This document shows positions 329 through 19,563 of a stretch of DNA of 20,000 bases, one piece after another. The stretch is from an uncultured virus (IMG/VR IMGVR_UViG_3300029305_006210) (taxonomy: Duplodnaviria; Heunggongvirae; Uroviricota; Caudoviricetes). The stretch spans positions 56,873-76,872 of IMG/VR virus record IMGVR_UViG_3300029305_006210. One strand, given 5' to 3'. Under the pieces are notes generated by a model that saw only the letters and a program-made list of their open reading frames with translations, was not told where the DNA came from and made no database searches. A program made the translations under genes and the position numbers. Numbering within the stretch: position 1 is the stretch's first letter; the number at the start of each line of letters is the position of its first letter.

Positions 329-622
329 TTATACATCAAGAAATTCTAATAAATCGTCTTGACTAATATTTACCTCACCGTCCGTCCAATCAATTGTATC
401 GTAGCCAAATATAAATCCAGGTTCTTTGCCAATATTATCAGCAGGCACTCCTACAAAACCCATACTATTAGGGCCACCTATTGCTCTAATATAGACATAA
501 GAACCTCTGAGATTATAACATTTATCATCCACTATGTACGTCGAATACATTTCACCAAGTTGTATGTCATCTCTAATACGAATTATATTTCCTTCCTTAA
601 AATCAGGATGTTTAAATTTCAT
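329..622 (-). CDS. Small phage protein, SH3-like family (K.G.xxRxRxDL), with C-terminal LxxFL tag
   Basis: FKEGNIIRIRDDI; ends ISQDDLLEFLDV. Confidence 0.75.
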   Translation of the reverse strand: MKFKHPDFKEGNIIRIRDDIQLGEMYSTYIVDDKCYNLRGSYVYIRAIGGPNSMGFVGVPADNIGKEPGFIFGYDTIDWTDGEVNISQDDLLEFLDV

Positions 623-626
623 ATTA

Positions 627-929
627 TCACACTCCTAAAAAATTGAATAAATCACATATATCTATGGCAAGATCAGGGCTTAAAATGTTATATTCTGATA
701 AATCAAACATCTCTGTGGTCCAAAACCAACCTCCTGCTTCTTTAACATAAAATTTCCCATTTAGACCTATCGCTGTTATAGTTACACGTTTTCCAGCAAA
801 CTTTACCATTTGAGGAGTCGCAAAATCAGCGGCAGTGTTATAATTTTCATATGTTTTTCCTTGCAAATCTGATCTTACTAACACTTTATCGCCCACTTCA
901 GGCACAAGTAGACCTTTAATATATTTCAT
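627..929 (-). CDS. Small phage protein, SH3-like family, with C-terminal LxxFL tag
   Basis: EVGDKVLVRSDL...WFWTTEMF; ends IDICDLFNFLGV. Confidence 0.8.
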   Translation of the reverse strand: MKYIKGLLVPEVGDKVLVRSDLQGKTYENYNTAADFATPQMVKFAGKRVTITAIGLNGKFYVKEAGGWFWTTEMFDLSEYNILSPDLAIDICDLFNFLGV

Positions 930-951
930 TTTTTAATTACCTCTTTTTTTT

Positions 952-1169
952 ATATTCTCTAATCTAAATATTATTTGGATACCGAGAAGGCTGCTTAACG
1001 CGTGACGTCATCCGGAAGATTCCGGTGAGAAAGTTGTGTTATTTCGCATATGCGGATGGGCTCAGTGACCTGGAGACCTGCGTGCTCCTTCCTGGTTATT
1101 TATGAACAATTCGAAAACTCTGATTACACCAAGAGCTGTTTTTTAAAAAAACAATGCATTAGAAAATAT
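952..1169 (-). ncRNA. Retron-like msr/msd element A
   Basis: Terminal inverted repeat ATATTTTCTAAT (1169-1158) / ATTAGAGAATAT (963-952), unpaired G at 1157, a small hairpin, then AGCTCT-TGGTGTAATC-AGAGTT (1137-1116). GC-rich structured interior. Confidence 0.75.
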
Positions 1170-1172
1170 TAA

Positions 1173-1574
1173 TTATATATTTAAAAAATTCATTAAACTG
1201 TTTTGATATATTACCATTTTAGGCACTTTTTCAAATTCAATATCTGTAAATAGATAGTCTGTAATCTCAGTCCCATTGTCTAAACTACTACTTCCATCGC
1301 AGTGAATATGCAGTATTCCATCACAATCTTCTGCACAATAAATAGAAACCCACTCATTAAATTCAAACTCAAATACTTCTCTTTCTTTAACCCTTTTTAA
1401 ATCGTCTAAGAGCGTGGAATTTGAATATACTGTTATATCTAAAAAACTTTCTAAATATAACATTGTTTGCAGAAACTCTTCTCTTGTCTCACATATTATT
1501 CCAATGGCTTCTGGGTTTGTCCAATGTAATAAAAATCTATTAATATCAAATTTAATTTTTTCTCCGACTGCCAT
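1173..1574 (-). CDS. Hypothetical protein with C-terminal LxxFL tag
   Basis: 133 aa, RBS AGGAG; KFDINRF near the N-terminus resembles the MYDIDRF family; ends IYQNSLMNFLNI. Confidence 0.75.
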   Translation of the reverse strand: MAVGEKIKFDINRFLLHWTNPEAIGIICETREEFLQTMLYLESFLDITVYSNSTLLDDLKRVKEREVFEFEFNEWVSIYCAEDCDGILHIHCDGSSSLDNGTEITDYLFTDIEFEKVPKMVIYQNSLMNFLNI

Positions 1575-1601
1575 AACTAAAATCTCCTTATTGTTTAAAT
1601 T

Positions 1602-1934
1602 TTATTGATCTAAGAAAGAAAATAAATCTTGAGAAGAGATATTTATTTCCATTACAGGTTCTAACATTTGATCATTAAACACCCACGTTTTTATACCTTT
1701 TAATCTATAAAATTTCTCATGGCCTTCTAATTGCATTACTTCAGTTTCCATGCCACGGAAACATTCCATTTCTTCGGCAAAATGAAGAGGTGAATCACCT
1801 TGGTATAAATAAAGATGATCATCAAAATCGTAATCATCTTTTCCATTTGGAAATTTTGAATTATAATATAATCCACCTATCAAATCTTGTCTTATTCTAA
1901 CTGTGTCACACACTTTAAAATTCTTACAACTCAT
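1602..1934 (-). CDS. Small phage protein, SH3-like family, with C-terminal LxxFL tag
   Basis: FKVCDTVRIRQDL...WVFNDQML; ends ISSQDLFSFLDQ. Confidence 0.8.
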   Translation of the reverse strand: MSCKNFKVCDTVRIRQDLIGGLYYNSKFPNGKDDYDFDDHLYLYQGDSPLHFAEEMECFRGMETEVMQLEGHEKFYRLKGIKTWVFNDQMLEPVMEINISSQDLFSFLDQ

Positions 1935-1936
1935 AA

Positions 1937-2197
1937 TTACCCCTTTAAAAAATTTTGCAAATCTTCAAGTTTTATTTCTTGAGGCCAATAAATTTGTTCA
2001 CCAAATGCTATTTCATAAGCTTTTAAAATTTCTTCTTTTGTCATATCAAAAGTATCATCATCATAAGATTTTAGAGTTTCAAACGAAGTACCACGTCCGC
2101 ATCTATGATCATTCCACTCTCTATCTATCGGACACTGTGAACAAAAAATTGGCGAACAAAATTCATTTAATTTTTTACGATATTTAATTAGTTCCAT
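1937..2197 (-). CDS. Cys-rich small protein (C..CxxC..CGRGT), possibly metal-binding, with LxxFL tag
   Basis: Paralog of 2199..2450; ends IKLEDLQNFLKG. Confidence 0.8.
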   Translation of the reverse strand: MELIKYRKKLNEFCSPIFCSQCPIDREWNDHRCGRGTSFETLKSYDDDTFDMTKEEILKAYEIAFGEQIYWPQEIKLEDLQNFLKG

Positions 2198-2198
2198 A

Positions 2199-2450
2199 TT
2201 AGTTTCCTAAAAATTCATTTAAGCTTTCTAAAGATATATTATCAATAATTATTGTTATATCTTTATTAAATACAGTTTTATATATCCTGATGATTTCTTC
2301 ATCTGACATATCATATTGATCATTATTTTTTTTAAAAGTAAAATGCGTACCACGCCCACATCTATATTTAGCACCTTCTAAAATACAATTATCACACGTT
2401 CTTTTACTATCGCAGAAGCGCGAGAGTTCTTTCCTATATTTTGTTAACAT
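2199..2450 (-). CDS. Cys-rich small protein (C..CxxC..CGRGT) with LxxFL tag
   Basis: KYRKELSRFC..CDNC..RCGRGTHF..YDMSDEEI aligns with its neighbour; ends ISLESLNEFLGN. Confidence 0.8.
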   Translation of the reverse strand: MLTKYRKELSRFCDSKRTCDNCILEGAKYRCGRGTHFTFKKNNDQYDMSDEEIIRIYKTVFNKDITIIIDNISLESLNEFLGN

Positions 2451-2458
2451 ATCTCCCC

Positions 2459-2779
2459 CTACATTAAAAAATCCATCAATTTTGATTTTGATGGAAAGAT
2501 AGCAGAACTACATTCTGGAGTTAAGTTTAAAATATGTTTAATTTGATAGCCTTTTTGAATACATTCGTATCTAAGTCTTGTTTTCCTTTTCAGCAAATTA
2601 TTATGACAAACTGATCCTAAGTAACATATTTCAGGTTCTATAATAATTACACCACGATTTTTTTGTTGCTTACTAAATGAGATTTCAACATTGTAATTTT
2701 TTACAATCCATTCGCAGGCTATTTTAAATTGTTCATATGTATCAAATAAAATTATTAATTTATTATGCTTTTTCTTCAT
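2459..2779 (-). CDS. Hypothetical protein with LxxFL tag
   Basis: Ends FPSKSKLMDFLM; 4-bp overlap with the upstream gene. Confidence 0.75.
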   Translation of the reverse strand: MKKKHNKLIILFDTYEQFKIACEWIVKNYNVEISFSKQQKNRGVIIIEPEICYLGSVCHNNLLKRKTRLRYECIQKGYQIKHILNLTPECSSAIFPSKSKLMDFLM

Positions 2780-3162
2780 ATTTCTAAAAAATCTTTTAAA
2801 GATATCTCAGATGGGAAAACGCCGTATACTAATTCGCTACAAGTAATCGTTTTATGAGTTATAAATTTTCGTCCTTCATTAAATAAAGGATATGTAATAT
2901 AATCATCTGGTGAATAATTTTGTGTTGCTCGTACATATTCTTTACATCTAATAAACATAGAACTACCTGCCTCGAAAAATAAAGCATACTCATCGTCTTC
3001 GGTCATTGCATATTCCATATGATCAGTCCAATCTGTATAACCTGAGGTATTTTCATTACCTGTACACCATTTTACTTCCGGATGATGGATTTCTAACCAT
3101 TGTAATGCATCAAAAACTTCGCTTTTATTATTACAAACAATAGCAGCATAATTAAAAGCCAT
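2776..3162 (-). CDS. Hypothetical protein, WxxG family, with LxxFL tag
   Basis: LQWLEIHHPEVKWCTG; ends FPSEISLKDFLEI. Confidence 0.8.
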   Translation of the reverse strand: MAFNYAAIVCNNKSEVFDALQWLEIHHPEVKWCTGNENTSGYTDWTDHMEYAMTEDDEYALFFEAGSSMFIRCKEYVRATQNYSPDDYITYPLFNEGRKFITHKTITCSELVYGVFPSEISLKDFLEI

Positions 3163-3166
3163 AACT

Positions 3167-3529
3167 TTACTCCTTTAAAAAATATAGTAAATCATCTTTT
3201 GAAATTGTATTTATAGGTAAAATATCCTTAGCATTAAAAATATGAGTTTTTCTCAGATTATTTACATGACATATATCACTAAAATATGATTGGCCGTGAC
3301 ATTTTTTTGATCTAAAAAATACAAAAGACTTTTTTAATAAATTGCTCTGTTTTATACATAACACTATTTCATCGTCATGTGGTATTTCACAATTAAGTAT
3401 GATTTCATGAAAAGTTGAAACTAATAGTTCATTTGATTTCCAACGTAACTTCGGGTAAACCCTTTCTAGATGACTAAGACATTGAAGAGCTTCATTAATT
3501 CCAAAGCATTTATATATTTCTTTTATCAT
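3167..3529 (-). CDS. Hypothetical protein, WxxG-related family, with LxxFL tag
   Basis: LSHLERVYPKLRWKS; ends ISKDDLLYFLKE. Confidence 0.75.
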   Translation of the reverse strand: MIKEIYKCFGINEALQCLSHLERVYPKLRWKSNELLVSTFHEIILNCEIPHDDEIVLCIKQSNLLKKSFVFFRSKKCHGQSYFSDICHVNNLRKTHIFNAKDILPINTISKDDLLYFLKE

Positions 3530-3541
3530 AATAATGCCTTT

Positions 3542-3844
3542 CTATATTAAAAAATCCATCAAATCGGAATTTGACGGAAATTTCATTGTGGAGTTTATTA
3601 TTTTTTGTATTGTAATTTCTGATTTAGGTGCTATTTTAGATGTTACTAAGTTAAATCGATCACACCAACACAGCTCATTATTATATACCATTAAATACAT
3701 TGGAAATTTTAATACTTTTGGTCGATGTTTTGTAGGTTTTCCTAATCCTAATACCCAATGCAACTCTGGATATTTATATTCAAGATAGTTTAATGCCATA
3801 TTAACTTCAGAATAACTATCACATTTTATAAAATAATTTTTCAT
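3542..3844 (-). CDS. Hypothetical protein, WxxG family, with LxxFL tag
   Basis: LNYLEYKYPELHWVLGLGKPT; ends FPSNSDLMDFLI. Confidence 0.8.
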   Translation of the reverse strand: MKNYFIKCDSYSEVNMALNYLEYKYPELHWVLGLGKPTKHRPKVLKFPMYLMVYNNELCWCDRFNLVTSKIAPKSEITIQKIINSTMKFPSNSDLMDFLI

Positions 3845-4234
3845 TTAATCCTCCAAAAATTCAAGCAAATCCAACTTTGATGGATATTCTATAGGTTGAT
3901 ACTTATAAAATGGATAACGCGTTTCCTTATAATCAATAGAAGATTTTGTATAAAAATTTATATAATATCGCGGAAATTTATATGTGAATTTAATAAATTT
4001 TCTTATTTGAAAAACATTTCTCCTATCATTCCATTCCCAATCCTCACTGGTTAACCAATCGCTAGGTATTCCTTTACGTATTGATAATGCCTTCGCCCCT
4101 TTAATTCTCGGCATCCATTTGATTCTTGTTTGATGCTCTATATCTTTTAAAAGACTTGCAAATTCATTATAATTTTTAACCTCAATGACAAAGGGTGCTG
4201 GAAATTCCAGTTTAATTATTTTTTTAATATTCAT
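3845..4234 (-). CDS. Hypothetical protein, WxxG-related family, with LxxFL tag
   Basis: LKDIEHQTRIKW; ends YPSKLDLLEFLED. Confidence 0.75.
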   Translation of the reverse strand: MNIKKIIKLEFPAPFVIEVKNYNEFASLLKDIEHQTRIKWMPRIKGAKALSIRKGIPSDWLTSEDWEWNDRRNVFQIRKFIKFTYKFPRYYINFYTKSSIDYKETRYPFYKYQPIEYPSKLDLLEFLED

Positions 4235-4566
4235 TATATATCACCTATAAATTTCAATAATTCTTCTTGCGAAGGAAATATACAATTTTCATCTTTACAT
4301 TGATAAAATACAACATCTGACCATGGAATTTCATCATAATATTTGGAACATCCCATACTACCAAAGCTAATACTAATGTATCCAGGGATAAATGCAGGAG
4401 TGTATCCAGTTGGTCTTTCTCCGGCATGCCATCTTATTTCAGTTTCTCTTTCTATAAAAGAAAGCACCTTATTTGCCTCTTGTAATGTTTGATAAAGGAC
4501 TCGAATATCTTCGCGCTCATTTTTTATATATGCGACTAAATCATCAAAACTAATTGTTTCTATCAT
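4234..4566 (-). CDS. Hypothetical protein, WxxG family, with LxxFL tag
   Basis: LSFIERETEIRWHAGERPT; ends FPSQEELLKFIGDI. Confidence 0.8.
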   Translation of the reverse strand: MIETISFDDLVAYIKNEREDIRVLYQTLQEANKVLSFIERETEIRWHAGERPTGYTPAFIPGYISISFGSMGCSKYYDEIPWSDVVFYQCKDENCIFPSQEELLKFIGDI

Positions 4567-4582
4567 TTTATGCTCCTTAATT

Positions 4583-4900
4583 TTAATTTAAAATATCCAT
4601 CAACATAGACTCTGATGGATATTTATATAAAAGGTCTGATGCATTAATAACTTTGAAATCCAAGTATCGTGTAGGAATATTGCCATTTATAAATAAATTA
4701 TATTTTTCACTACTTTCATCTTTGGTAAGACTATTTCCTCTAAGATATAATATACCTTGTCCTTTAAATATAGCGCTAGGTTTATAATCTAATGAATCGC
4801 CAGTACACCATTTTATAAGTGGATAGTTATTAGCCAGCCACTTTAAACATGGCTCACATTCTCCATTATCACACATAATAATAGTTTTATTTTCTATCAT
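4583..4900 (-). CDS. Hypothetical protein, WxxG family, with LxxFL-like tag
   Basis: LKWLANNYPLIKWCTG; ends YPSESMLMDILN. Confidence 0.8.
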   Translation of the reverse strand: MIENKTIIMCDNGECEPCLKWLANNYPLIKWCTGDSLDYKPSAIFKGQGILYLRGNSLTKDESSEKYNLFINGNIPTRYLDFKVINASDLLYKYPSESMLMDILN

Positions 4901-4902
4901 AA

Positions 4903-5211
4903 TTAAGCCTCCAAAAATTTTGTTAACGACGCTTCATCTGGTAGTGGTAATATAACTTCATTAAATACAGATTCAATTTCATCAAAACCTATATATACAT
5001 CTATTATCATTGATAAATCACTCCTTTTTCGCACCCAACTTAATTGATTATTGTTAATGATAAATATTGCATCCCCTTGTATAACTAACGCTTCTGTTGG
5101 ACGTCGTCCAGATGTCTTCCATCTAACCATTGGTAAATTAGCTTCAATAACTTCTAAACACGCTCTTGATTGATTACTATTTTTGCAGCAAATTGCAATA
5201 TTTTTATTCAT
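4903..5211 (-). CDS. Hypothetical protein, WxxG family, with LxxFL tag
   Basis: VRWKTSGRRPT; ends LPDEASLTKFLEA. Confidence 0.8.
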   Translation of the reverse strand: MNKNIAICCKNSNQSRACLEVIEANLPMVRWKTSGRRPTEALVIQGDAIFIINNNQLSWVRKRSDLSMIIDVYIGFDEIESVFNEVILPLPDEASLTKFLEA

Positions 5212-5216
5212 ATTTT

Positions 5217-5555
5217 TTACCTATTCAAAAATTCCACCAAACTACTTTCTGATGGCAAAATATTATAAGAAATATTATATTGTCTTTCTAAATCGCCAAA
5301 TTCAATAATCTTGCAATCAGAATACATATCAGCACAATAAACTTTATCATCAAATAATTTTCCATAAGTTAGGCGAAAATCTTTTATATAAAAGGCTACT
5401 CCTTTTTTAAAAATTTTAGATAAATAACTTGAAACAGGATTTATCGGACTATTCCCTGATCGCCATCTTACAGTAGTTTCATTTTCAAGAAACTGTAGAA
5501 AAACATCTGATTCTTCTTGATTTCTACATACGACTATCATATTGTTTATTATCAT
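5217..5555 (-). CDS. Hypothetical protein, WxxG family, with LxxFL tag
   Basis: FLQFLENETTVRWRSGNSP; ends LPSESSLVEFLNR. Confidence 0.8.
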   Translation of the reverse strand: MIINNMIVVCRNQEESDVFLQFLENETTVRWRSGNSPINPVSSYLSKIFKKGVAFYIKDFRLTYGKLFDDKVYCADMYSDCKIIEFGDLERQYNISYNILPSESSLVEFLNR

Positions 5556-5587
5556 AAAATTTACCTATTTTACACCATATAACTATA

Positions 5588-5905
5588 TTAACTTTCTAAA
5601 AATTCCAATAGACTATTTTGTGAAATGAATTTAAAATTCATTATTTTACAAAATTCATCGAAACTCAAATTAGTTTCAGGGTTAAGAAATTTTGCTACTT
5701 CATCTAAATAATCCCATGATAATCTATCATCTTCTATAAAAAAGACAACCTGATGTGTTATGGGAAATGCTATTTTAAGAGTTGGTATCTTATGCCCTGT
5801 TTGCCATTTTACATCTGTAAATTCGTAAAGCAATTGTAAAAAAGTTTCAACTTCCACCTTTTCCATACATGTTACTGTTATATTATTTAATTTCATAACT
5901 TTCAC
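5588..5905 (-). CDS. Hypothetical protein, WxxG family, with LxxFL tag
   Basis: FLQLLYEFTDVKWQTGHKIPT; ends ISQNSLLEFLES; true start may be the ATG at 5896. Confidence 0.75.
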   Translation of the reverse strand: MKVMKLNNITVTCMEKVEVETFLQLLYEFTDVKWQTGHKIPTLKIAFPITHQVVFFIEDDRLSWDYLDEVAKFLNPETNLSFDEFCKIMNFKFISQNSLLEFLES

Positions 5906-6163
5906 CTATTTTAAGAAGTCCATCAAATTTTCCTTTGATGGAAAAGTAGTATTTCCGAGGTCTAACATCTCAAAAGTATAATACCATGAATAAGTGTTTG
6001 TCTTTAGATATACCGACCTCTTTAAAATTTCAAGCACTTCAAAACCTTGAAATTTCAACGGTTTCATTCCTTCCCAATAAGGCAAACCGTTATATTCTTG
6101 ACCAATTACCAAATCTTGTCTCAAATAGACGATATCTCCCACTTTTATGCCTGGATTTACCAT
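5906..6163 (-). CDS. Small phage protein, SH3-like family, with LxxFL tag
   Basis: IKVGDIVYLRQDL...WYYTFEML; ends FPSKENLMDFLK. Confidence 0.8.
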   Translation of the reverse strand: MVNPGIKVGDIVYLRQDLVIGQEYNGLPYWEGMKPLKFQGFEVLEILKRSVYLKTNTYSWYYTFEMLDLGNTTFPSKENLMDFLK

Positions 6164-6164
6164 T

Positions 6165-6446
6165 TTAGTCCTCCAAGAATTCCATCAAAGACGCATTTGA
6201 TGGAAAAGTATAATTATATGCAAATACATCTTGATATTCAAAAGCTATTCTACGTTCGCTTATAGCTGTTACATACACACCATCATCATATACATAGTAT
6301 GTATTTACATACTCCTCATATAATTCTGTTGGAGCTTGTATAAATAATCCTTGTTCTTTTACTAGACGTAAAAATGTTCTAACATCTTCAACTGTTCTAA
6401 TATACACAGAAGATTTTCCGTCTACCCAAGATTCCCAATCAAACAT
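6165..6446 (-). CDS. Hypothetical protein with LxxFL tag (distant MxDxxxF family)
   Basis: Starts MFDWESW; ends FPSNASLMEFLED. Confidence 0.75.
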   Translation of the reverse strand: MFDWESWVDGKSSVYIRTVEDVRTFLRLVKEQGLFIQAPTELYEEYVNTYYVYDDGVYVTAISERRIAFEYQDVFAYNYTFPSNASLMEFLED

Positions 6447-6448
6447 AA

Positions 6449-6751
6449 TTATTCTCCTAAAAATTGCTTCAAGCTGGACTCAGAAATTTTTGTAATAATA
6501 AGCAGATCTGCTGCTTTAATAGACTCCCAACCATACTGTACATGGAAGTCATCGGGGCCCATTAGTATACGTTTTCTATCCTCCCAGTTATATACAACAG
6601 CATATGGCTGTTTATTTATAACATCTTCCCAAAAGCTTGATTTTTGACCTATTCCTCTTTTTGCGCAACAATCTGCAAAATCTAATATTTCTTGTTCATT
6701 ATCAAAATTTACACTTAATTTTTCATTTATAAATCTGTCAATATCGTACAT
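6449..6751 (-). CDS. Hypothetical protein, MYDIDRF paralog family, with LxxFL tag
   Basis: MYDIDRF...YGW...DL; ends ISESSLKQFLGE. Confidence 0.8.
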   Translation of the reverse strand: MYDIDRFINEKLSVNFDNEQEILDFADCCAKRGIGQKSSFWEDVINKQPYAVVYNWEDRKRILMGPDDFHVQYGWESIKAADLLIITKISESSLKQFLGE

Positions 6752-6766
6752 GATTTTTGAACTCCT

Positions 6767-6986
6767 ATTTTTTCTAATCTAAATTATCATGAAGGCGACG
6801 TATCCGGATGGCATATATTACATTTTTGCAAGCGAAGTATTGATTACGTCTTGCGAGTTTAGCTATTTGTGGTTGTATAAGGTGTTGGAATTCCAACCTG
6901 ATACTCATTTGCCCGAAAGTATCATCACGAGCTGCGAGACCAGATCTTGATGATCCTCCATGTCACTCCTTGACAATATGAAAATT
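6767..6986 (-). ncRNA. Divergent or partial retron-like element B
   Basis: Same 3' end as A and C (GATAATTTAGATTAGAAA), same ~220 nt size, 5' hairpin TGTCA-AGGAG-TGACA and many internal hairpins, but no GGTGTAATC hairpin and only weak terminal pairing. Confidence 0.5.
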
Positions 6987-7277
6987 TTATTCTTTTAAAA
7001 AATCCATCAGATTTTGCTCTGACGGATATTTCTCTTTTATTATTAAATCAGAAAATGGAATTATATCCCATCCATGTTTTAATAAAAAATTATTTTTCGC
7101 ACATGTATCTATATAGTTATGTCCTGACCACCCATATAAATATTTCCAATGTGAATAGTATGGCATTGTTACAGGTATATTGTTATTGCTACATATAACA
7201 CAGAAGGTTATATATTCATCCTCATTTTTAAACTTAAGGGCGATATTATCATGTTTAAATCTATCAATGTCGTACAT
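6987..7277 (-). CDS. Hypothetical protein, MYDIDRF paralog family, with LxxFL tag
   Basis: Close paralog of 7521..7808; ends YPSEQNLMDFLKE. Confidence 0.8.
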   Translation of the reverse strand: MYDIDRFKHDNIALKFKNEDEYITFCVICSNNNIPVTMPYYSHWKYLYGWSGHNYIDTCAKNNFLLKHGWDIIPFSDLIIKEKYPSEQNLMDFLKE

Positions 7278-7291
7278 AATAATCTCCTATA

Positions 7292-7511
7292 AATTTCTCT
7301 CTAATCTAATTATCGTAAGGAGGATCTGCTCTTCCTGGCAAAAAACCGGCGTGATTGGATTGTTAGTTGCCCACTTTCCTATAGAAAATTATTCTATTGC
7401 CAGCTTTGTGTGCGGGCCCTGCAGCTGGGTCGTCCCCCATTCTGCTCTGGCCATGTGAAAACCTTGATAACACCTAAGGCCACCTTTTTAAAGTAATACA
7501 TTAGAGAAATT
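7292..7511 (-). ncRNA. Retron-like msr/msd element C
   Basis: Terminal inverted repeat TCTCTAAT (7507-7500) / ATTAGAGA (7305-7298), G at 7499, hairpin GGCCTT-AGGTGTTATC-AAGGTT (7481-7460), GC-rich hairpin interior. Confidence 0.75.
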
Positions 7512-7520
7512 ATTGTAATT

Positions 7521-7808
7521 TTATTCTTTTAAAAAATCCATCAAATCTTGTTTTAACGGAAAATTTGGTATTATTAGTTCAGAAAAATTGTATATTATCC
7601 ATCCTTTAACTGTTAAAAAATTATCTGATGAACATGTTTGTATTTTTCTCACTCCATTAAATCCATATAAATAAGTTTTTTTTAAACTGTAGTTACAAGT
7701 ATTAATGATTTGATTTTTTTTGCAAATACCTTCAAATATCATATATTCATCTTTATTTGCAAACCGAATAGCAATTTTTTCATATTTAAATCTATCAATA
7801 TCAAACAT
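7521..7808 (-). CDS. Hypothetical protein, MYDIDRF paralog family, with LxxFL tag
   Basis: MFDIDRFKYEKIAIRF; ends FPLKQDLMDFLKE. Confidence 0.8.
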   Translation of the reverse strand: MFDIDRFKYEKIAIRFANKDEYMIFEGICKKNQIINTCNYSLKKTYLYGFNGVRKIQTCSSDNFLTVKGWIIYNFSELIIPNFPLKQDLMDFLKE

Positions 7809-8130
7809 TATCTTCCTCCAAAAAGTTTAATAGAGTATCCTTCGATATTTGTTTGCTCACCATTAAATCCTTAACAAATATAAATGGTTTATCTCCTCTA
7901 TATGTTGACATTGCACCATATCTTAACTTTAATAAAGAACTCCCTTCATTTGTTCCGTATCTTACATATGGATTTTGTGATGACTTAAACTTGTTACTAA
8001 TTATTCTTTTGAGAAATTTATAATCACCTCTTAAATTATTTTTTTGTGAGATGTCAAGAACATAATCCATTTCTTTTTCATTTATTACTACTATTGGATA
8101 ACCATTCTTCAAATAATATATTAAATCCAT
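7801..8130 (-). CDS. Hypothetical protein with LxxFL tag
   Basis: Ends ISKDTLLNFLEEDNV; overlaps the next gene by 8 bp. Confidence 0.75.
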   Translation of the reverse strand: MDLIYYLKNGYPIVVINEKEMDYVLDISQKNNLRGDYKFLKRIISNKFKSSQNPYVRYGTNEGSSLLKLRYGAMSTYRGDKPFIFVKDLMVSKQISKDTLLNFLEEDNV

Positions 8131-8134
8131 TTTT

Positions 8135-8389
8135 TTACTCCATTATGAATAATAAACTGCTATGATTATGATTTGTAGCATTACTATTATGCTTAGGCAT
8201 TATAGTTATTATCTTTTTCCTAAGCAACTGCGCACTTATATTTTTAATACAAACTGTTTCTTTGGGGTGTTCTTTACCATATATATGAATAAAAATTTCA
8301 TCATCCGGATTAAGTCCAATAATTTTAATAGCTTCTTTTAATGAAATTTTTTTATCTTTTTCTTCTTTAGCTTTTTTAGGCCTTGCCAT
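8135..8389 (-). CDS. Small basic hypothetical protein, first gene after the RT and element D
   Basis: MARPKKAKEEKDKK, strong RBS GAGGAGG; lacks the LxxFL tag. Confidence 0.75.
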   Translation of the reverse strand: MARPKKAKEEKDKKISLKEAIKIIGLNPDDEIFIHIYGKEHPKETVCIKNISAQLLRKKIITIMPKHNSNATNHNHSSLLFIME

Positions 8390-8406
8390 ATTTTCCTCCT
8401 CATAAG

Positions 8407-8600
8407 TTTATAACTTAATACAGAGGAAGCGTCTGCACTTCTTCCTCTGCTTTTTGTATAAGTTATAAAAATTTTCAAGACTTCAGAAGCGCCTAGCGCT
8501 GCTGATCGTCTTGAAAATTATGTGTTACTGTGTTCAATAACCATTTGTTAATTCTGATTACACCTAGAACTACCCGCTTAATGCTGGTAATGTGCAGAAT
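8407..8600 (-). ncRNA. RT-adjacent structured RNA, element D
   Basis: Begins about 10 nt after the RT stop. Hairpin TACC..GGTA (8589-8571), AGTTCT-AGGTGTAATC-AGAATT (8571-8550), then two long hairpins at 8470-8519 (12-bp perfect base) and 8407-8469. Confidence 0.75.
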
Positions 8601-8610
8601 CTTTTTCTAT

Positions 8611-9918
8611 TTATTGACCGTTTTTGATATCGGCCTTAATAGCTCCTCTTATATCTCCAAATTTTCGTGAGTATTCGTCTATAATATGCTCTATAGTTTC
8701 TGGTTCAATAGATTTACAATATGAAATTTCACCTTGTAAATGCTGCACATCTTCTTTACTCCACATGCACCCTTTATTTCTATCTAACATATAATTCGAC
8801 AATATGGCTTTTAATTGCTTTTTCCTTTTATGTCCCACTGTTGGAGTATGACTTTGGTTAAGCATTAAACCTAACATCCAGTTAGATCCAGCATTTGAAC
8901 CATATCTTGTTTTGCTATCATTTAAAGAAAAAGGCGCATCGTAATGCGCCAGTACTTTCTTTATGTAATCTACTATTTCATGATGGTTAAATTTAAACCT
9001 ATTTGATATCATAATGTCATCAGCATATCGAGTATAAACAAATCCACATTCATTTTCCGCGAAAATCTTATTGCTCTTTAAGGCATTTGACAGATGATGG
9101 TCTATAGGAATCATCATTATATTTGTTAATATTGGTGACATTGGTGTACCCTGAGGCAAACCGCCGTTCAAGAAACATAAGTTCAGGCAATTTTTTACTG
9201 CCCGCTTACCCCGTGAACTTCTCATGATTTCTGAAAAAGGATATATGTCAGAAAACATTCTCATTACATATTCTAATGAGGTACTACCAAAAAAGTTTGA
9301 GAAGTCAATTTTTAGAAACCAATTGCTCTTATTATTTGCATGTTTCATAACAGCGTCCTTAGTGCTTCTGTTGTTGATATATGCAAACGCTGCGGTATGA
9401 TAATAACATCCATCCATAAGGATCTCGAAGGCTAATTTCATATGGCTTAAGCAATCTTTTAACTCATCACATGGAGCATCAATACGTCTCCACTTTTTGT
9501 GCCCAGGCTCTGAACTTGCTTTGGGAATGAAAAATGTATCGTACATATGAGAATATTTTAATCCCATTGTCGCCATTTCTTTTGCAGCTTCATGTTTTGC
9601 TGCGTCTTTATCTAGCCCTGCCCTTTTGTATTTCCTTATTAAATCTACTTGAAGTTCGTAGTTATAATCTGGATGTCCATTATTAATATCCAAGTGTTGA
9701 TATTTTTTATACAACTTCTCTAAAATTTCAATCTGTTTTGGAATATTTAATTCTGTCAATTTTTCAAGTGAAATACTATCATAGTAATATGTTCTTGTTC
9801 CGGTAGTCTGATATTTTGTAGGAGGCCGTAACATATCTACAGTTACTAAGTCATTAAGAAAGTCGAGCAAATCAATCTCTTTCTTTCTCGGCTTTAACCT
9901 GGTTGTTACATAAGGCAT
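8611..9918 (-). CDS. Reverse transcriptase, retron-like
   Basis: RT motifs KxxxxGxxKWRRIDAP, KIDFSNFFGS, LPQGTPMSP, YTRYADD, and MLG at the retron VTG position; no maturase or endonuclease domain visible. Confidence 0.93.
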   Translation of the reverse strand: MPYVTTRLKPRKKEIDLLDFLNDLVTVDMLRPPTKYQTTGTRTYYYDSISLEKLTELNIPKQIEILEKLYKKYQHLDINNGHPDYNYELQVDLIRKYKRAGLDKDAAKHEAAKEMATMGLKYSHMYDTFFIPKASSEPGHKKWRRIDAPCDELKDCLSHMKLAFEILMDGCYYHTAAFAYINNRSTKDAVMKHANNKSNWFLKIDFSNFFGSTSLEYVMRMFSDIYPFSEIMRSSRGKRAVKNCLNLCFLNGGLPQGTPMSPILTNIMMIPIDHHLSNALKSNKIFAENECGFVYTRYADDIMISNRFKFNHHEIVDYIKKVLAHYDAPFSLNDSKTRYGSNAGSNWMLGLMLNQSHTPTVGHKRKKQLKAILSNYMLDRNKGCMWSKEDVQHLQGEISYCKSIEPETIEHIIDEYSRKFGDIRGAIKADIKNGQ

Positions 9919-9933
9919 CTTTTCACCTCCTCT

Positions 9934-10632
9934 TTATACTGCTGCCATCATATCATCACGTCCAAATGTATCGATAGCGTGAAACTTTGAATTGTAAAAC
10001 ATGGTTTTCTGTAATGCCTTTTTATCCTTTACAAAATGAACAAAGTTTTGAATTCCACAATTTACGATTCCAGTGATTGTATAGAAGATACTTAATGTTT
10101 CTCTACATGCTGACATCGGTGTTTGTTCTCTAGCTTCTTCGTCAGTGAAATCCATTGATGCATAGAGATCATCCTTCATCTTTACACTGCTCCAATCTGC
10201 AGCATAATGCTGTGCGTCTTCAAGCCTCATTCTGAAATCAAACATTGCTACAACATTTGGATTGTACTTATTTGCTTCTACGATCTTTTTTCTAATTTCA
10301 ATAGAATCAACTGCAATGAATACATACCCATTAAGCTGCTGATTAGTATAGAAACCTTTTGTCTGAATGAAATGTTCGATATCTGGGTTTACCTCGATCA
10401 ACATATCCTTTAATGCTTCAGTCTTTTGACGTCCAATATCAATAGAACGATACATCTGATTTGCTACATTCTTAGATTCAACAACATCTTCATCATATAA
10501 AACAAAGTTTGTTAATCCAAGTTTTGCTAACATATAAGCGAGTGTGGATCCAATAGCTCCACACCCTACAATATGAATCTTCTCAGTAACAGTTTCAGGC
10601 TGAAAAAATTCGTGATGTTTATTTAAATTCAT
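9934..10632 (-). CDS. ThiF/E1-like ubiquitin-activating enzyme
   Basis: IVGCGAIGS nucleotide-binding loop, LYDEDVVESKNVANQ, GRQKTEAL, AVDS; candidate catalytic Cys in MSAC. Confidence 0.9.
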   Translation of the reverse strand: MNLNKHHEFFQPETVTEKIHIVGCGAIGSTLAYMLAKLGLTNFVLYDEDVVESKNVANQMYRSIDIGRQKTEALKDMLIEVNPDIEHFIQTKGFYTNQQLNGYVFIAVDSIEIRKKIVEANKYNPNVVAMFDFRMRLEDAQHYAADWSSVKMKDDLYASMDFTDEEAREQTPMSACRETLSIFYTITGIVNCGIQNFVHFVKDKKALQKTMFYNSKFHAIDTFGRDDMMAAV

Positions 10633-11744
10633 TACTTTTCCTCCTCGGCTTCTACCTCTAATGTTATAAGTAACATTTCCTTCTGTTCTTTGTCTGTTTT
10701 TACTTCCACAGATTTCACGCTTAATCCCATAACAAGTCTAATAGCACTTACACTTGTCATATCTACAAGTACACCCTTTTTATCTACCACCTTGAAATAT
10801 GCATACTTTTTATCGAGGCAATAATCGAAAATTGACATTGCTACTGAATTTGGTGCAGTTAACGGATCATCTGTTTTGGCAGTTGTAAGATCTTTGAAAG
10901 CATATTCATTACCAAAATAATCTTTGCATGTAACATCATAATATTTAGGATAGATCGTATAAATTTCATAGATTGATGAATTAGTCGGTTTAAAAGTAAC
11001 AGCATAACTTTTAGGAATAAACTCATTATCTGTTTTCTTTTCTGCAGACATGTATCCATCAAGCCACTGATCCCAATCATACATGTCACTAGCATAATTA
11101 TTTAATGGATATATGTCTTGTTTCGTCTCTTTTTTCTTCGAATAAAGGTATGACCCTGGTAACGGCTGTTTCTTTTCTCCGCCGCCGAAGAGAAAGTATG
11201 TAGATGATTTAGGGCTAGGAATATCTTTAACAAGCTTCTTGCTTTCTTCATAGTATTCTGAATTAGAAAGACCTTCTTCTACTTCAATAACGATTACAAT
11301 ATCGCTATTCTTATATTCAATACTATCCTCTGCGTCCATGATCCACCATGTCATTTCCATTTTTTTATTCATTATCATAGCAATCGTGAATCGCTTATCA
11401 TTAGCAGCAGCATTTGATGTTGCGAATCTTTTCCATGATTCAGTATCTGTTGATGATGGTGACACACTCATATTTACATGAGAATGACCATGAAAACGTC
11501 TGGAGTTGTATTCTTCATCTGAGAGGCTATCTTTCCATTCGATCATTTCATCTAATGACTCATCAATTGTATCTTCTACATAGGCTGAAGATACTAATTG
11601 TGGATAAATCAGAATATCTTTAATTCTGTATTCGCCAACGGCAATTTTTTCTACTGTACCGAACCAGCCCACTTCTTTATCATGCCCGATGACTAACGCC
11701 TGCATCTTAATCCATGCAGATGGTGAAATTCTAACTTTAGCCAT
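10632..11744 (-). CDS. JAB/MPN+ domain metalloprotease with C-terminal extension
   Basis: N-terminal EVGW glutamate and HSHVNMSVSPSSTD, matching HxHx7Sx2D. Confidence 0.88.
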   Translation of the reverse strand: MAKVRISPSAWIKMQALVIGHDKEVGWFGTVEKIAVGEYRIKDILIYPQLVSSAYVEDTIDESLDEMIEWKDSLSDEEYNSRRFHGHSHVNMSVSPSSTDTESWKRFATSNAAANDKRFTIAMIMNKKMEMTWWIMDAEDSIEYKNSDIVIVIEVEEGLSNSEYYEESKKLVKDIPSPKSSTYFLFGGGEKKQPLPGSYLYSKKKETKQDIYPLNNYASDMYDWDQWLDGYMSAEKKTDNEFIPKSYAVTFKPTNSSIYEIYTIYPKYYDVTCKDYFGNEYAFKDLTTAKTDDPLTAPNSVAMSIFDYCLDKKYAYFKVVDKKGVLVDMTSVSAIRLVMGLSVKSVEVKTDKEQKEMLLITLEVEAEEEK

Positions 11745-11747
11745 AAT

Positions 11748-13142
11748 TTATTCAGCCTCCTTTTCCTTTCTAATATACTCAATTGCTCCTGCAATATCTT
11801 CAAATTCACCATTCGGTAATTCAATACACTTATTTTCACAAACACCCTTTAACAGATACACGCCAGCGGCATCGTCTGATAATGTGATTTGTTTTGCGGC
11901 ATATAAGATCTGATTTAATGCTTCGACAAATCTATTTGCAATTGAGTATTGTGCAATTCTTGTTTCAGAATTTCCAAAACAAGAATAATGTGCTCCAAGA
12001 TGTGGATGTGGCATTGAATTTTTGCTTGCGACTTTTTCTGCATGTACCCTTCCAGATACAATGTTCAGATCAATCTTCATACTTGTCCATAATTTGAATT
12101 CATTAGTCTCTGCAATTCTTCTGTAGAACTCCTTGATTTCTTCTGTTGTAAATGAGCCATAAACCTCCCTTATGAACTCTTTTGGCACATCACCATTGCA
12201 ATGCTCCAGCTTGCCGAACATGTATGAAGTTCCATTATTATCTCTAATGATACTGTAATAATCTTCTTCTTCGGTAAACTGATCCAACATTGCAGTAATT
12301 TCAAAGGTAATAGTTTCATCATTAACGTTTGCAATTGAAATTTTTTCTCTACTTGATTCAATGAATTCTACAATTTCCATAACTGGTGAATGCATTGCGT
12401 CTCTATCCATTCTCATAGATCTTAATGCATTTTGCTGCTGCTTCAGCTCCATATTATAGTTATATATACTTTCAAAACGCTCTCTGATACGCTCTTCGAT
12501 CTCCTTGACTCTTCTTTCCGCTTCAACGACTTTTTTCTCAGTAATTCTATCAGCCATTTTCAGCATTTTATTCATTAATACTTTATCACTAAGGCCAAGT
12601 TCTGTTACCATGGCTTCAAATTCGAGCTGAAATTTTGGAAGTAATTCATTATTAATGAACATTGGTGCAATCTCTTTTGAAATTTTTTCAGTTCCGGCAC
12701 TGAAATACCATGGAAATAACTTAGTTGCGATTGCACAGAATATCTTTTCTGTATAGCTATTGAAGACAGAATAGCCTGTTGAATTATTTCTTGTTACATG
12801 AATAACTCTCATATCAGGATTGATGTAAATTTTATATTTAGGCTGATCATCCTGAATTCCCTGACTTACAAACATACTTATAAGTTCATTGTAACATTCT
12901 TCCATGTAAGGAGAGCCACCAATGATTATGGCATTTTTTGCATTTGTCAGATCGTGTGAAGAATTATCTTCCAGTGTAATAATTTTTAATTTTTCTTCTT
13001 CATAAACATAACTTTCGATAGAAAGTAAGTGCTTATATAATAAGAACATTTTTAACATAGTTGAATATGAAGAGAAACTGTTTACATCAATTTCATTGTC
13101 ATATAACTCAAAAATTGATTTTTCGATATCCGGGTTTAACAT
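11748..13142 (-). CDS. Putative prokaryotic E2-like protein with central coiled coil
   Basis: C-terminal PHPHLGAHYSCFGN resembles the E2 HP(N/H)...C signature; coiled coil at about aa 200-250; lies between Ubl and JAB/E1 genes. Confidence 0.6.
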   Translation of the reverse strand: MLNPDIEKSIFELYDNEIDVNSFSSYSTMLKMFLLYKHLLSIESYVYEEEKLKIITLEDNSSHDLTNAKNAIIIGGSPYMEECYNELISMFVSQGIQDDQPKYKIYINPDMRVIHVTRNNSTGYSVFNSYTEKIFCAIATKLFPWYFSAGTEKISKEIAPMFINNELLPKFQLEFEAMVTELGLSDKVLMNKMLKMADRITEKKVVEAERRVKEIEERIRERFESIYNYNMELKQQQNALRSMRMDRDAMHSPVMEIVEFIESSREKISIANVNDETITFEITAMLDQFTEEEDYYSIIRDNNGTSYMFGKLEHCNGDVPKEFIREVYGSFTTEEIKEFYRRIAETNEFKLWTSMKIDLNIVSGRVHAEKVASKNSMPHPHLGAHYSCFGNSETRIAQYSIANRFVEALNQILYAAKQITLSDDAAGVYLLKGVCENKCIELPNGEFEDIAGAIEYIRKEKEAE

Positions 13143-13174
13143 GCGATTTTCCTTTCTTTTTTTTAATTATTGGG

Positions 13175-13463
13175 TTTATTACAATCTAATAGTGAGAATT
13201 ATAACGCTGCAGATGATCAAAGAAGGTTTTAACCTTTTAAGTTAACTGCGTTATATCAGGTAATCAGTGATATTCTGATTGTGAATTAACCTAGAAGTTA
13301 TGTATTTTTATCCCGAGCGAAGTATTTCGTTGAATAAAGATTTGCGTTTAACTTCTTTATAATGAATTAATTAGCTTCCTGCCTCCAGTCGTTTTCTCTA
13401 GACCATATGAATACTCGGATTACACCGCGAGCAGTTTTATAAAAAACAATACATTGTAATAAA
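13175..13463 (-). ncRNA. Retron-like msr/msd element E
   Basis: Perfect 11-bp terminal inverted repeat TTTATTACAAT (13463-13453) / ATTGTAATAAA (13185-13175), G at 13452, hairpin TGCTCG-CGGTGTAATC-CGAGTA (13433-13412), several internal hairpins (e.g. 13293-13356). Confidence 0.78.
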
Positions 13464-13486
13464 AAAAGCGGGGATTTCTCCCCGCT
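13461..13486 (-). terminator. Rho-independent terminator after the Ubl gene
   Basis: AGCGGGGA-GAAA-TCCCCGCT followed by a T-tract. Confidence 0.8.
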
Positions 13487-13504: not shown

Positions 13505-13753
13505 CTAAGCAGCGTTGCTTGTCTTGATTGTTTCGTACAGCATAATTGTAGCGCCGTTGGATGCAAGACCTGCATCAACAATCTGATCAAATGTCATATC
13601 CAGCTGAGTTTCAGTCAGCATTGTTCCACCGATTGAGAACTTTGCTCCCATCATAGCATTCTTATCCTGAAGATAATTTCTAACTGTTGTTGTACCTGAT
13701 ACGATTTCTTCTGCATGTCTCTGTGCGCTTGCGATGAACTTAACTTTTACCAT
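13505..13753 (-). CDS. Ubiquitin-like (beta-grasp) protein
   Basis: 82 aa with beta-grasp pattern (MVKVKFI...TTVRNYL...IGGTML...LDMTF...IML); upstream of E2/JAB/E1; ends KTSNAA with no Gly. Confidence 0.7.
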   Translation of the reverse strand: MVKVKFIASAQRHAEEIVSGTTTVRNYLQDKNAMMGAKFSIGGTMLTETQLDMTFDQIVDAGLASNGATIMLYETIKTSNAA

Positions 13754-14445: not shown

Positions 14446-14666
14446 TAATGTTTTATATCACCTAAGAATTCTTCATTAGGCAACTTTTTTGTATCTATAA
14501 CCCCTTTTTCTATTATTTGTATGAGGATTGTATCCTCATCATATCTAATAACCGTTGTTATTCGGCCGTTGATATCTCTATCGTCAAGTAACACATGGTC
14601 AAACGGATCATTATGATAGTAGTTATACACTGATTCTTTGAACTGTTCCGCTGTCAATCTCGACAT
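14445..14666 (-). CDS. Hypothetical protein
   Basis: Likely start MSRLTAEQ at 14666 behind GGAGG. Confidence 0.7.
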   Translation of the reverse strand: MSRLTAEQFKESVYNYYHNDPFDHVLLDDRDINGRITTVIRYDEDTILIQIIEKGVIDTKKLPNEEFLGDIKH

Positions 14667-19559: not shown

Positions 19560-19563
19560 ATGT

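Follow-up and report, generated by a model that had tools for sequence, protein, structure and literature searches.

The window analysed here is a stretch of 20,000 nt, positions 56,873-76,872 of IMGVR_UViG_3300029305_006210, a 76.9-kb IMG/VR record of an uncultured Caudoviricetes virus. Its minus strand carries a conserved module of four genes, which encode in order a protein with an RWD/E2-like fold, a JAB protease, a ThiF/E1 enzyme and a reverse transcriptase (RT), together with five copies, A to E, of a structured element. The RT (8611-9918, minus strand, 435 aa) has a YADD motif and is extended by about 120 aa at its N-terminus. It matches Pfam RVT_1 at 5.6e-22. PADLOC ranks RT_II-A first (5.9e-48), and of its 72 matches the top 25 are without exception retron RT models, while all 13 PDB matches are retron RTs with Ec83 first at 1.3e-17, so the retron-like RT of the original prediction is borne out. 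How much of the retron hallmarks does it keep? According to the available part of Mestre et al. (2020, PMC7736814), retron RTs have NAXXH in region X, with H the most conserved, and VTG in region Y, with G the most conserved. In region X of the phage RT, KDAVMKH is aligned to DNAKIH of Ec83 and the H is aligned and conserved; in region Y, WMLGLML is aligned to HVTGVTL, and G350 is invariant in 25 relatives. The N and A of NAXXH and the V and T of VTG are not retained, only the H and the G being kept. On the strength of its sequence, the RT is a member of the retron clade, and a protein search returned 4207 relatives of it at E<=1e-10.

The three other genes lie directly upstream on the same strand. 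The ThiF/E1-like adenylating enzyme (9934-10632, minus strand, 232 aa) is matched by Pfam ThiF at 1.1e-18 and by PADLOC E1-E2 models at 6e-18, and of 144 related loci, 134 have a ThiF/E1 upstream of the RT. The JAB/JAMM-like metalloprotease (10632-11744, minus strand, 370 aa; PADLOC JAB 4e-06) shows the HxH-x7-S-xx-D metal site in its translation as HSHVNMSVSPSSTD, and the protein is present in 125 of the 144 loci. The first gene (11748-13142, minus strand) encodes a 464-aa protein of no known family, with no Pfam match and no Foldseek match, for which a C-terminal RWD/UBC-like fold is predicted. Its AF2 model (pLDDT 78.9) is aligned by VIA-align to the RWD domain of Knl1 at Z 8.3 (rmsd 2.8, 91 aa) and to that of RNF25 at Z 6.9; ESM Atlas gave a Prok-E2_D lead at 0.76-0.79, and His381 and Cys388 are invariant in an alignment of relatives. 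RWD is a member of the UBC-like superfamily. From its model, the protein is possibly an E2-like partner, the E2 assignment being weak. Note that E1, E2 and JAB also stand beside a nucleotidyltransferase or a Ubl in type II CBASS, with Cap2/Cap3, and in Bil/Bub operons. The phage module resembles them in that E1 and JAB adjoin a nucleotide polymerase-type enzyme and that an E2-like protein is possibly present, but its E1 is short (232 aa) without E2 fusion, and the partner is an RT with candidate template RNAs. No Ubl was identified in the phage module.

What are the RNA elements that accompany this module? The motif GGTGTWATC is found four times in the window, each time on the minus strand and within an intergenic element (1122-1130, 7466-7474, 8556-8564 and 13418-13426), compared with 0.14 expected from dinucleotide shuffles of the window, and none of 200 shuffles reaches four. 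As had been predicted, all four copies are flanked by 6-bp stems (AGCTCT/AGAGTT, GGCCTT/AAGGTT, AGTTCT/AGAATT and TGCTCG/CGAGTA) to give a hairpin, hp2, and a short hairpin, hp1, lies immediately 5' of each. The "10-nt loop" described for hp2 is really one unpaired base, a 3-bp helix and a triloop. Only these four hairpins in the 76.9-kb record have this loop (with at most one mismatch) and all six stem pairs, and a covariance model (CM) gave only four strong matches in the record.

Three elements, A, C and E, are complete. They are bounded by a terminal inverted repeat, a1/a2; an invariant G comes right behind a1, followed by a pair of covarying hairpins and a variable interior, and a2 is preceded by UUAG. 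The element-specific inverted repeats that close these three were missed in the original prediction and are graded as the strongest feature. Element A (952-1169, minus strand) has a1 at 1158-1169, the G at 1157, hp1 at about 1137-1153, hp2 at 1116-1137 with its top motif at 1122-1131, the interior at 964-1115 and a2 at 952-963. Its MFE fold closes a1/a2, its CM R1 score is 67 bits (E 5e-10), and it is 24 nt upstream of the ORF at 627-929. Element C (7292-7511, minus strand; CM R1 61 bits) has a1 at 7500-7509, extendable to 7511, and a2 at 7296-7305, extendable to 7292, with the G at 7499 and hp2 at 7460-7481; it is 18 nt upstream of the ORF at 6987-7277. Element E (13175-13463, minus strand; CM R1 58.8 bits) has a1 at 13453-13463, the G at 13452, hp2 at 13412-13433 and a2 at 13175-13185. 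It heads the four-gene operon, 33 nt before the ORF at 11748-13142, and has a positional counterpart in L004, the closest IMG/VR relative, at 2921-3260. A terminator-like hairpin with a T-run (13467-13486, minus strand) abuts a1 of E, the T-run being the 5' part of a1, and this layout recurs in L005 and L004.

The other two elements are incomplete. Element D (8390-8610, minus strand; CM R1 58.7 bits) directly follows the RT stop codon and has a 5' core only, with hp1 at about 8572-8590 and hp2 at 8550-8571. It has no a1/a2 and a C at the G position, and the core is followed by three strong hairpins, one of them terminator-like. Element B (6767-6986, minus strand), compared by eye with C, is a decayed copy that gave no covariance-model match at E<=1. 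It does share the 3' end attributed to it, an a2-like end (UUUAG plus AUUAGAAAAAAU, 6767-6778), but otherwise only the hp2 3' arm and the ACAUGG junction are kept, while hp1, both the 5' arm and the top of hp2, and a proper a1 are absent. D and B are probably not templates, though D may still be bound by the RT. Relative to the RT, the complete elements are 3.5 kb upstream (E), 1.1 kb downstream (C) and 7.5 kb away on the downstream side (A). The only element contiguous with the RT in the window is thus the incomplete D, and the locus departs from the retron pattern of one contiguous element per RT.

Is this anatomy a property of the whole family? In a 23-sequence seed, all 12 pairs show changes on both sides, and the covariation of hp1 and hp2, which the original prediction had put forward as a check, is 0.756, against 0.275 in shuffles (none of 500 as high) and 0.10-0.20 with slid partners, where part of the covariation count comes from sequences picked, or aligned, by the structure itself. 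The 3-bp top helix of hp2, which is not in the search model, is 99.7% paired with covariation in 126 distinct members. This helix is phage-specific, with a mean Hamming distance of 1.96 within a locus and 4.65 between loci (0 of 2000 permutations as low). The shared hp1/hp2, with hp2 tops alike within a phage, are read as a candidate RT-recognition part of msr type. A G follows a1 in 115 of 125 distinct cores and precedes a2 in 100 of 110 elements. There are many different a1 sequences in the family, and a1 and a2, which are separated by 124-443 nt, are complementary over at least 8 contiguous nt in 76% of cores, compared with 15% for shifted anchors. Judged from these sequences, the layout of the complete elements is the msr-msd architecture of retrons.

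Inverted repeats of 10-12 bp around about 200-300 bp are also what MITE-like mobile cassettes, moving at the DNA level, would have, and L005 has its RT between two 396-bp copies that are 100% identical. However, the repeats vary between elements yet stay complementary, which points to selection for pairing and not to a transposase site. Furthermore, the interiors are unrelated, the copies all lie on one strand near the RT, and the covariation in hp1 and hp2 is that of RNA helices. Neither target-site duplications nor copies scattered in unrelated genomes were seen, and we find such cassettes scarcely credible.

The scan of relatives with the covariance model, as had been proposed, gave 221 matches in 1.6 Mb of related loci searched on both strands, and all 221 are on the RT strand. 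In five whole phage records of 83-124 kb, every one of the 25 matches is at most about 10 kb from the RT. An exact match to the hp2 motif was located in 4 IMG/VR contigs, each of which carries the RT. The 55 non-redundant loci include 45 with at least two elements and 30 with at least three, and 2-8 are present in relatives. Relatives often have an element immediately upstream of the RT (e.g. L001); L002 has three in tandem before the RT, and L011 also has a tandem array. The claim of one RT with several templates is supported as far as multi-element loci are the rule across a large related phage clade. In the window only A, C and E are full candidate templates, D and B lacking the priming features.

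Could each phage have a single working template, with the other copies being duplicated relics, or decoys or regulators that bind the RT? The decay of B, the lack of a1/a2 and G in D, and a recurring "no-G" subtype in relatives, with A at that site in 8 of 125 cores, would fit this explanation. Against it, A, C and E all retain 10-12 bp of a1/a2 and the G despite unrelated interiors. Moreover, a1/a2 is closed in the MFE fold of 105 of 110 elements, which argues for selection on each copy, and between close relatives the element cores have diverged less than the RT gene (conservation 0.980 vs 0.961). A single template is therefore considered improbable.

Another explanation is that the elements are cis-acting leader RNAs of local genes that are never reverse-transcribed, acting in put/nut-type antitermination, processing or translational control, with hp1/hp2 bound by a phage protein or RNA polymerase. 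Of the 110 complete elements, 70 are followed, at a distance of under 80 nt, by an ORF of at least 50 aa with a Shine-Dalgarno sequence. All elements are on the coding strand, and D retains the core without a1/a2. In addition, the conserved end of a1, TGYAAT, resembles a -10 box, and a terminator-like hairpin directly precedes some elements, at times abutting a1; both observations make the 5' end of the transcript uncertain. But a leader role leaves unexplained the element-specific complementarity of a1 and a2 over such distances, the two conserved junction G's and the confinement near a retron-clade RT. It also does not suit the 18 of 110 elements that precede another element rather than a gene, nor the tandem arrays. 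We regard leader RNAs as an unlikely explanation. A related comparison is with Type VI retrons, in which cDNA derepresses translation of the downstream effector, according to the part of the preprint available (bioRxiv 10.1101/2025.10.22.683967). On that partial account, the phage elements are similar in having an ncRNA in the leader of a downstream gene, but they differ in that a2 ends 18-33 nt before start codons with the Shine-Dalgarno sequence outside the a1/a2 stem, and in that many have no gene behind them.

The interiors range from 130 to 380 nt across the family. They are unrelated within one phage, as had been claimed, except that a purine-rich start is common to them, so they are not wholly unrelated. 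No second copy of an interior exists elsewhere in the 76.9-kb record, and in a comparison with 2.9 Mb of related loci only orthologues and their own hairpins were matched. Between near-identical phages, the interiors diverge faster than the RT gene. The interiors had also been described as GC-richer than the genes, which is borne out for A (0.46), C (0.49) and B (0.40) and fails for E (0.32) and D (0.35), the record being at 0.32. They were said to be full of hairpins, which is partly true: the folding z is -1.9 for A, -2.3 for C, -3.1 for E, -7.8 for D and -1.5 for B. On average 56% of an interior is paired, mostly in branched MFE folds, unlike the long hairpin, single or double, typical of msd, and some interiors have near-perfect hairpins of 27-29 bp or an imperfect one of 84 nt.

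Might the interiors encode something that is expressed only after reverse transcription, as in DRT2, so that peptides or genes are made from the cDNA? A stop-free frame on the sense strand is found in 37 of 110 interiors, compared with 18.3 expected from shuffles, in a set that is redundant. The excess, however, is limited to the RNA-sense strand (antisense 18 vs 18.2 expected), the frames from a conserved AUG/UUG after hp2 run only 2 to 21 codons in A, C, D and E, and the relatives of the RT are retrons and not UG2. We hold such coding to be very improbable. Phage diversity-generating retroelements likewise combine a phage-borne RT with fast-varying sequence. This candidate was rejected: no template/variable repeat pair was found in the 76.9-kb record and 2.9 Mb of related loci, and the RT is of retron type.

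We thus think it fairly probable that the system is a phage-borne retron variant, in which one retron-clade RT serves several cognate RNAs of msr-msd type. The observations behind this reading are the RT family, the RNA anatomy with its covariation, the multiplicity of elements, their linkage to the RT and the fast turnover of cargo. Priming, cDNA synthesis and the end points of the cDNA we infer as follows. In the complete elements A, C and E, a1 would pair with a2, so that the invariant G that follows a1 comes to face the conserved G that precedes a2. The shared phage-specific hp1 and hp2 would be recognised by the RT, which would use the 2'-OH of the G next to a1 for priming and copy the interior, beginning at the a2 side. 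A separate branched RNA-DNA (msDNA), differing in its cargo of 130-380 nt, would then arise from each element.

There is a further question, what would a phage do with such a repertoire? Known retrons pair one RT with one template RNA and are kept by bacteria for defence. For the phage system, we lean towards a role in phage-host or phage-phage conflict, perhaps as counter-defence, perhaps in excluding rival phages, for which the E1/JAB module would be the effector. A more elaborate scenario, which we put forward only tentatively and think rather doubtful as a whole, is a multiplexed DNA factory in a widespread clade of gut phages. Here a cassette array with constant handle and free cargo would yield a repertoire of structured ssDNAs. 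The cargos would turn over at least as fast as silent sites, each engaging a different fast-evolving factor of the host or a rival phage, for example as decoy or sensor for DNA-binding immune proteins, and the output would be coupled to the E1/E2/JAB conjugation module. Whatever the role, retron chemistry appears to be arrayed in these phages, where an unvarying handle for RT recognition is combined with many cargos unrelated to one another, all inherited as a phage module. Reverse transcription of the elements, if it occurs, would show that retron handles in nature accept long cargo of any sequence and that many templates can be served by one RT, which would bear directly on multiplexed retron editing. 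In that case E1, JAB and the possible E2 would make a new accessory module among retron types, and the question would be raised of how phages use an ssDNA library. Cargo turns over fast between phages that are otherwise nearly identical, and this marks out an interface of conflict that is open to testing.

The available part of Mestre et al. (2020, PMC7736814) describes bacterial retrons as an msr-msd ncRNA with RT and effector, in 13 types, and the term 'ThiF' has 0 occurrences in that part. The phage system is similar to them in its RT clade, in an ncRNA closed by a1/a2 with a G right after a1, in msr-like stem-loops followed by a variable structured msd-like part, and, in relatives, in an element just upstream of the RT and accessory genes in the RT operon. 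It differs in having at least two ncRNAs per RT in 45 of 55 loci, up to 8, in elements that are dispersed or tandem and interleaved with tRNA genes, in its ThiF/E1, JAB and RWD/E2-like-fold accessory proteins, in the 120-aa N-terminal extension of the RT, in the long, mostly branched interior, and in its carriage by phages. No description of a multi-template phage retron arrangement was found in literature searches, in agreement with the original view that this is not a described system. The module is syntenic in about 100-kb phages of gut Clostridia. The system sits in an early accessory region among tRNA genes: four of them form a cluster at 17818-19867, on the minus strand like the elements, and in relatives tRNA arrays are interleaved with elements.

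The window covers the final 20 kb of a virus record that is 76,872 bp long (GC 32%, classed linear, CheckV completeness estimate 44%), and every gene in this region is on the minus strand. What kind of reverse transcriptase (RT) is encoded at 8611-9918 (minus strand; 435 aa, YADD; Pfam RVT_1, 5.6e-22)? In PADLOC its top match is retron RT_II-A (5.9e-48), and the best 25 of 72 matches are all retron RT models. Among solved structures, 13 of 13 matches are retron RTs, Ec83 first (1.3e-17), then Ec78, Ec86, Ec67 and Kva2. The alignments to these conserve the H of NAXXH and the G of VTG, two retron RT motifs defined in the excerpted text of PMC7736814. The N-terminus has about 120 extra aa, and metagenomes hold 4207 relatives of the protein at E<=1e-10. 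Taken with the RNA elements around it, the simplest account is a retron whose one RT serves several cognate candidate templates.

These elements were first proposed from the sequence alone, as a short hairpin (hp1) followed by a 6-bp stem (hp2) at the 5' side of a variable msd-like interior. The hp2 motif GGTGTWATC has four copies in the window, all on the minus strand, while 0.14 are expected from shuffles and 0 of 200 shuffles reach four. The 6-bp stems are present around each copy, with a short hairpin before each. What was described as the 10-nt loop of hp2 consists of one bulged base followed by a 3-bp helix and a triloop. For elements A (952-1169), C (7292-7511) and E (13175-13463), the predicted coordinates coincide exactly with the outer ends of closing inverted repeats (a1 and a2), a feature absent from the original prediction: AUAUUUUCUAAU pairs with AUUAGAGAAUAU in A, UUUCUCUAAU with AUUAGAGAGA in C, and UUUAUUACAAU with AUUGUAAUAAA in E. 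All three pairings are recovered in the MFE fold, and in all three a G directly follows a1 and UUAG directly precedes a2. Element D (8390-8610) has hp1 and hp2 without the closing repeat and without the G; its predicted fold is very strong (z -7.8) and includes a terminator-like hairpin after the RT gene. Element B (6767-6986) does share the 3' end, as had been claimed, and also the 3' arm of hp2 and the junction, but keeps nothing else of the element and is matched by neither covariance model described below. Rfam, searched on the window at gathering scores and at E<=1, returned tRNAs only. Of 17 DNA sequencing runs, all in the form of contigs, the four compared (X1-X4) gave low-depth pieces identical to the window, which carry no information on ends, depth or msDNA. 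The ORF that directly precedes element E and its terminator-like hairpin (13505-13753, minus strand; 82 aa) matches no family, and no related protein is encoded in the fetched loci.

Is this arrangement peculiar to one phage? Related RT loci were fetched, 82 from IMG/VR and GenBank and 80 from genome bins, the latter mostly of gut Clostridia (contigs 10-430 kb). In one locus (L001) an element lies between the ThiF gene and the RT, the canonical retron position, with its own a1/a2 (CACUUAGCAAU with AUUGCAAGUAA), G, hp1, hp2 and GC-rich interior; in another (L002) three such units stand in tandem before the RT. In a seed alignment of 23 sequences 12 of 12 pairs vary on both sides, with a covariation of 0.756 compared with 0.275 in shuffles (0/500 as high) and 0.10-0.20 with slid partners. 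The percentage paired of hp2 in the seed is circular because its members were chosen for five inner pairs, while hp1, which was not used in the selection, is 73.5% paired.

The covariance-model scan that had been suggested for phages with homologous RTs (model R1; 1.6 Mb, both strands, E<=1) gave 221 matches, all on the RT strand, and 149 at E<=0.005. At the latter threshold, among 80 loci whose RT ORF could be recognised, 12 have no match, 24 have one, 24 two, 11 three, 8 four and 1 eight. A reduced set of 55 loci, one per near-identical group (28 of 83 dropped), was scanned with a second model (R2), which found 145 matches at E<=0.01, with at least one element in 52/55 loci, at least two in 45/55 and at least three in 30/55. 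These counts are lower bounds, since both models miss divergent members. For example, the closest IMG/VR relative (L004, RT 56% identical) has no score at E<=0.01, yet two elements are seen by eye, one of which corresponds to E in position and has the same GGUGUUAUC top. A permissive scan for a1/a2 pairs returned 299 matches, mostly chance, and as it stood was too noisy to serve as an element finder. Elements usually sit about 300 nt ahead of the RT; behind it, the usual distances are 20-50 nt and about 310 nt, with further sites downstream. L005 and L083 are one phage, on a contig of a Clostridiales Family XIII isolate. On either side of its RT gene is a copy of a direct repeat of about 396 bp (L005 9600-9996 and 11350-11746); the two copies are 100% identical, and each contains a whole element plus an upstream hairpin and T-run. 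A 5' core subtype with no G (GAUACAUAAUU...) recurs at L041 12684, L066 13649, L074 15992 and L079 12769. The subtype has its own closing motif (..CUACGCUC...GAGCGACGCU..) and very long hairpins, and perhaps represents a second RNA class using the same hairpins.

Several retron-like features recur in the family. Of 125 distinct cores, 115 have a G directly after a1 and 8 have an A; C and T stand there once each. A complement of a1 of at least 8 contiguous nt lies 90-520 nt downstream in 76% of cores, against 15% for anchors shifted by 23-53 nt, and the full 10-nt complement is found in 55/125 cores against 19/625 shifted anchors. The a1 sequences themselves are highly varied (TGTAAT, TGCAAT, TACAAT, TCTAAT and others), and a2 changes to match. 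Of the 110 distinct complete elements, 105 have a1 paired with a2 in the MFE fold and 100 have a G directly before a2, mostly within UAG; from the G after a1 to a2 they span 124-443 nt (median 278). The top helix of hp2 covaries as well, from GGU/AUC in the window to GCU/AGC, GGU/ACC, GCC/GGC and ACU/AGU in relatives, and is 99.7% paired though it lies outside model R1. The mean Hamming distance between hp2 tops is 1.96 within a phage and 4.65 between phages (0/2000 permutations as low). This likeness is compatible with recognition by the phage's own RT, but concerted evolution of the copies would equally produce it.

Might the elements instead be leader or antitermination RNAs? This is the main rival explanation, and it accounts for their position and strand: an ORF with a Shine-Dalgarno sequence begins less than 80 nt downstream of 70/110 elements. 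In 18/110, the next feature is a further element. The rival leaves unexplained the element-specific long-range pairing, the junction G's and the tie to a retron RT. That tie is seen in five whole records (83-124 kb), where 25/25 element matches are confined to some 10 kb around the RT. Of the matches in the window's own record, four are strong; the other two are weak and inside genes (E 0.18 and 0.66). The exact 22-nt hp2 motif occurs in four contigs of IMG/VR, a small number, 4/4 of them with the RT. In relatives, tRNA arrays and one tmRNA (L006 2543-2921) are interleaved with elements, the arrays lying directly downstream of the RT at L001 11198-13105, L006 2446-4340 and L066 11767-13039; Rfam on 7 related loci gave only tRNAs and this one tmRNA. 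Because a1 starts at most 5 nt from a tRNA 3' end in L001 and L006, tRNA processing could define the RNA 5' end. In the window, a tRNA-like gene at 19475-19559 (minus strand) has an odd anticodon loop in ARAGORN ('ac', type unknown) and scores 37.7 bits in Rfam.

There is a further question, what the interiors carry. They had been described as unrelated, and indeed two interiors of one locus never fall in the same blastn cluster, the 110 elements giving 72 clusters. The description as GC-rich fits A (0.46), C (0.49) and B (0.40) but not E (0.32) or D (0.35). Interiors usually start with a purine-rich stretch that pairs with a pyrimidine-rich one farther along. Where RT identity is below 80%, interior identity equals the shuffled baseline of 0.55 while that of the 5' core is 0.63-0.75. 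In 81 orthologous element pairs, which are not independent (RT genes mean 96.1% DNA identity), identity is 98.0% for the core, 93.7% for the last 20 nt plus a2 and 85.5% for the interior, which is below that of the RT gene in 80/81. One group has invariant ends, of ~105 nt at the start and ~30 nt at the close, between which ~190 nt are scrambled, with indels. Since the interior mean of about 85% is near that expected for silent sites, low constraint would explain it; pairs with interiors at 0.65-0.70 and RTs at 0.90-0.96 suggest replacement or diversifying change. Interiors have no match elsewhere in the window's record, and a search of 2.9 Mb of related loci brought up orthologues and hairpins internal to the interiors themselves, and nothing more. 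In this set, therefore, neither a DGR-like target nor a guide-like match turned up, and a role as DGR template or guide was rejected within these searches. Coding was also rejected, open sense frames being in only weak excess.

The RT travels with an accessory module. ThiF lies upstream of it in 134/144 related loci (43-56% identity) and JAB in 125/144; in the window's JAB protein the HxH-x7-S-xx-D site is intact. Immediately before JAB, 109 distinct loci have a 375-575-aa ORF, here a 464-aa protein with one invariant His and one invariant Cys. This protein has no match in Pfam or PHROGs, nor by Foldseek in PDB at E<=0.001. RWD domains are the best VIA-align match for the C-terminal domain of its AF2 model (pLDDT 78.9; Z 8.3, rmsd 2.8 over 91 residues), a borderline prediction of an RWD-like fold whose sole backing is an ESM Atlas lead to Prok-E2_D (0.76-0.79). 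The module keeps its synteny and has diverged together with the phage: at RT identities of 40-50%, ThiF identity is about 50%. Around it lie small early-type genes, a weak ArdA-like match and tRNA genes. Synteny, co-divergence and neighbourhood lean to some part in the phage's conflict with its host or with rival phages, counter-defence and exclusion both being possible. In the main text of open-access papers, searched in full, no description was found of a phage retron with several ncRNAs or of a retron with ThiF/JAB partners, and no paper combined retron, ThiF, JAB and reverse transcriptase; the excerpted texts of PMC7736814, PMC13712802, PMC10849725 and PMC1779556 mention neither.

Several minor observations concern the neighbouring genes. 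A 251-aa protein at 14623-15378 (minus strand) weakly matches ArdA (antirestriction; E 0.0011, under the Pfam cut-off). About 23 small ORFs (80-133 aa) at 329-8130 (minus strand), and also at record positions 55915 and 48126, have in common only a C-terminal peptide, (F)PSxxxL(M/L)(D/E)FLxx; the family makes up 23 of the 83 minus-strand ORFs of the record and is at background level in most related loci, L102 with 5 and L004 with 3 being exceptions. The peptide is encoded by a hairpin and T-run called by a terminator scan (e.g. 7002-7027, 3555-3578, 2472-2495, 5234-5255), so the tail may be a dual-use RNA/DNA signal. RT residues 14-26 (at the 9918 end of the RT gene) include IDLLDFLNDLV, with the consensus IxLxDFLxGxV in 25 relatives. 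The likeness to the LxDFL tail of the small paralogous ORFs could reflect a common short docking motif.
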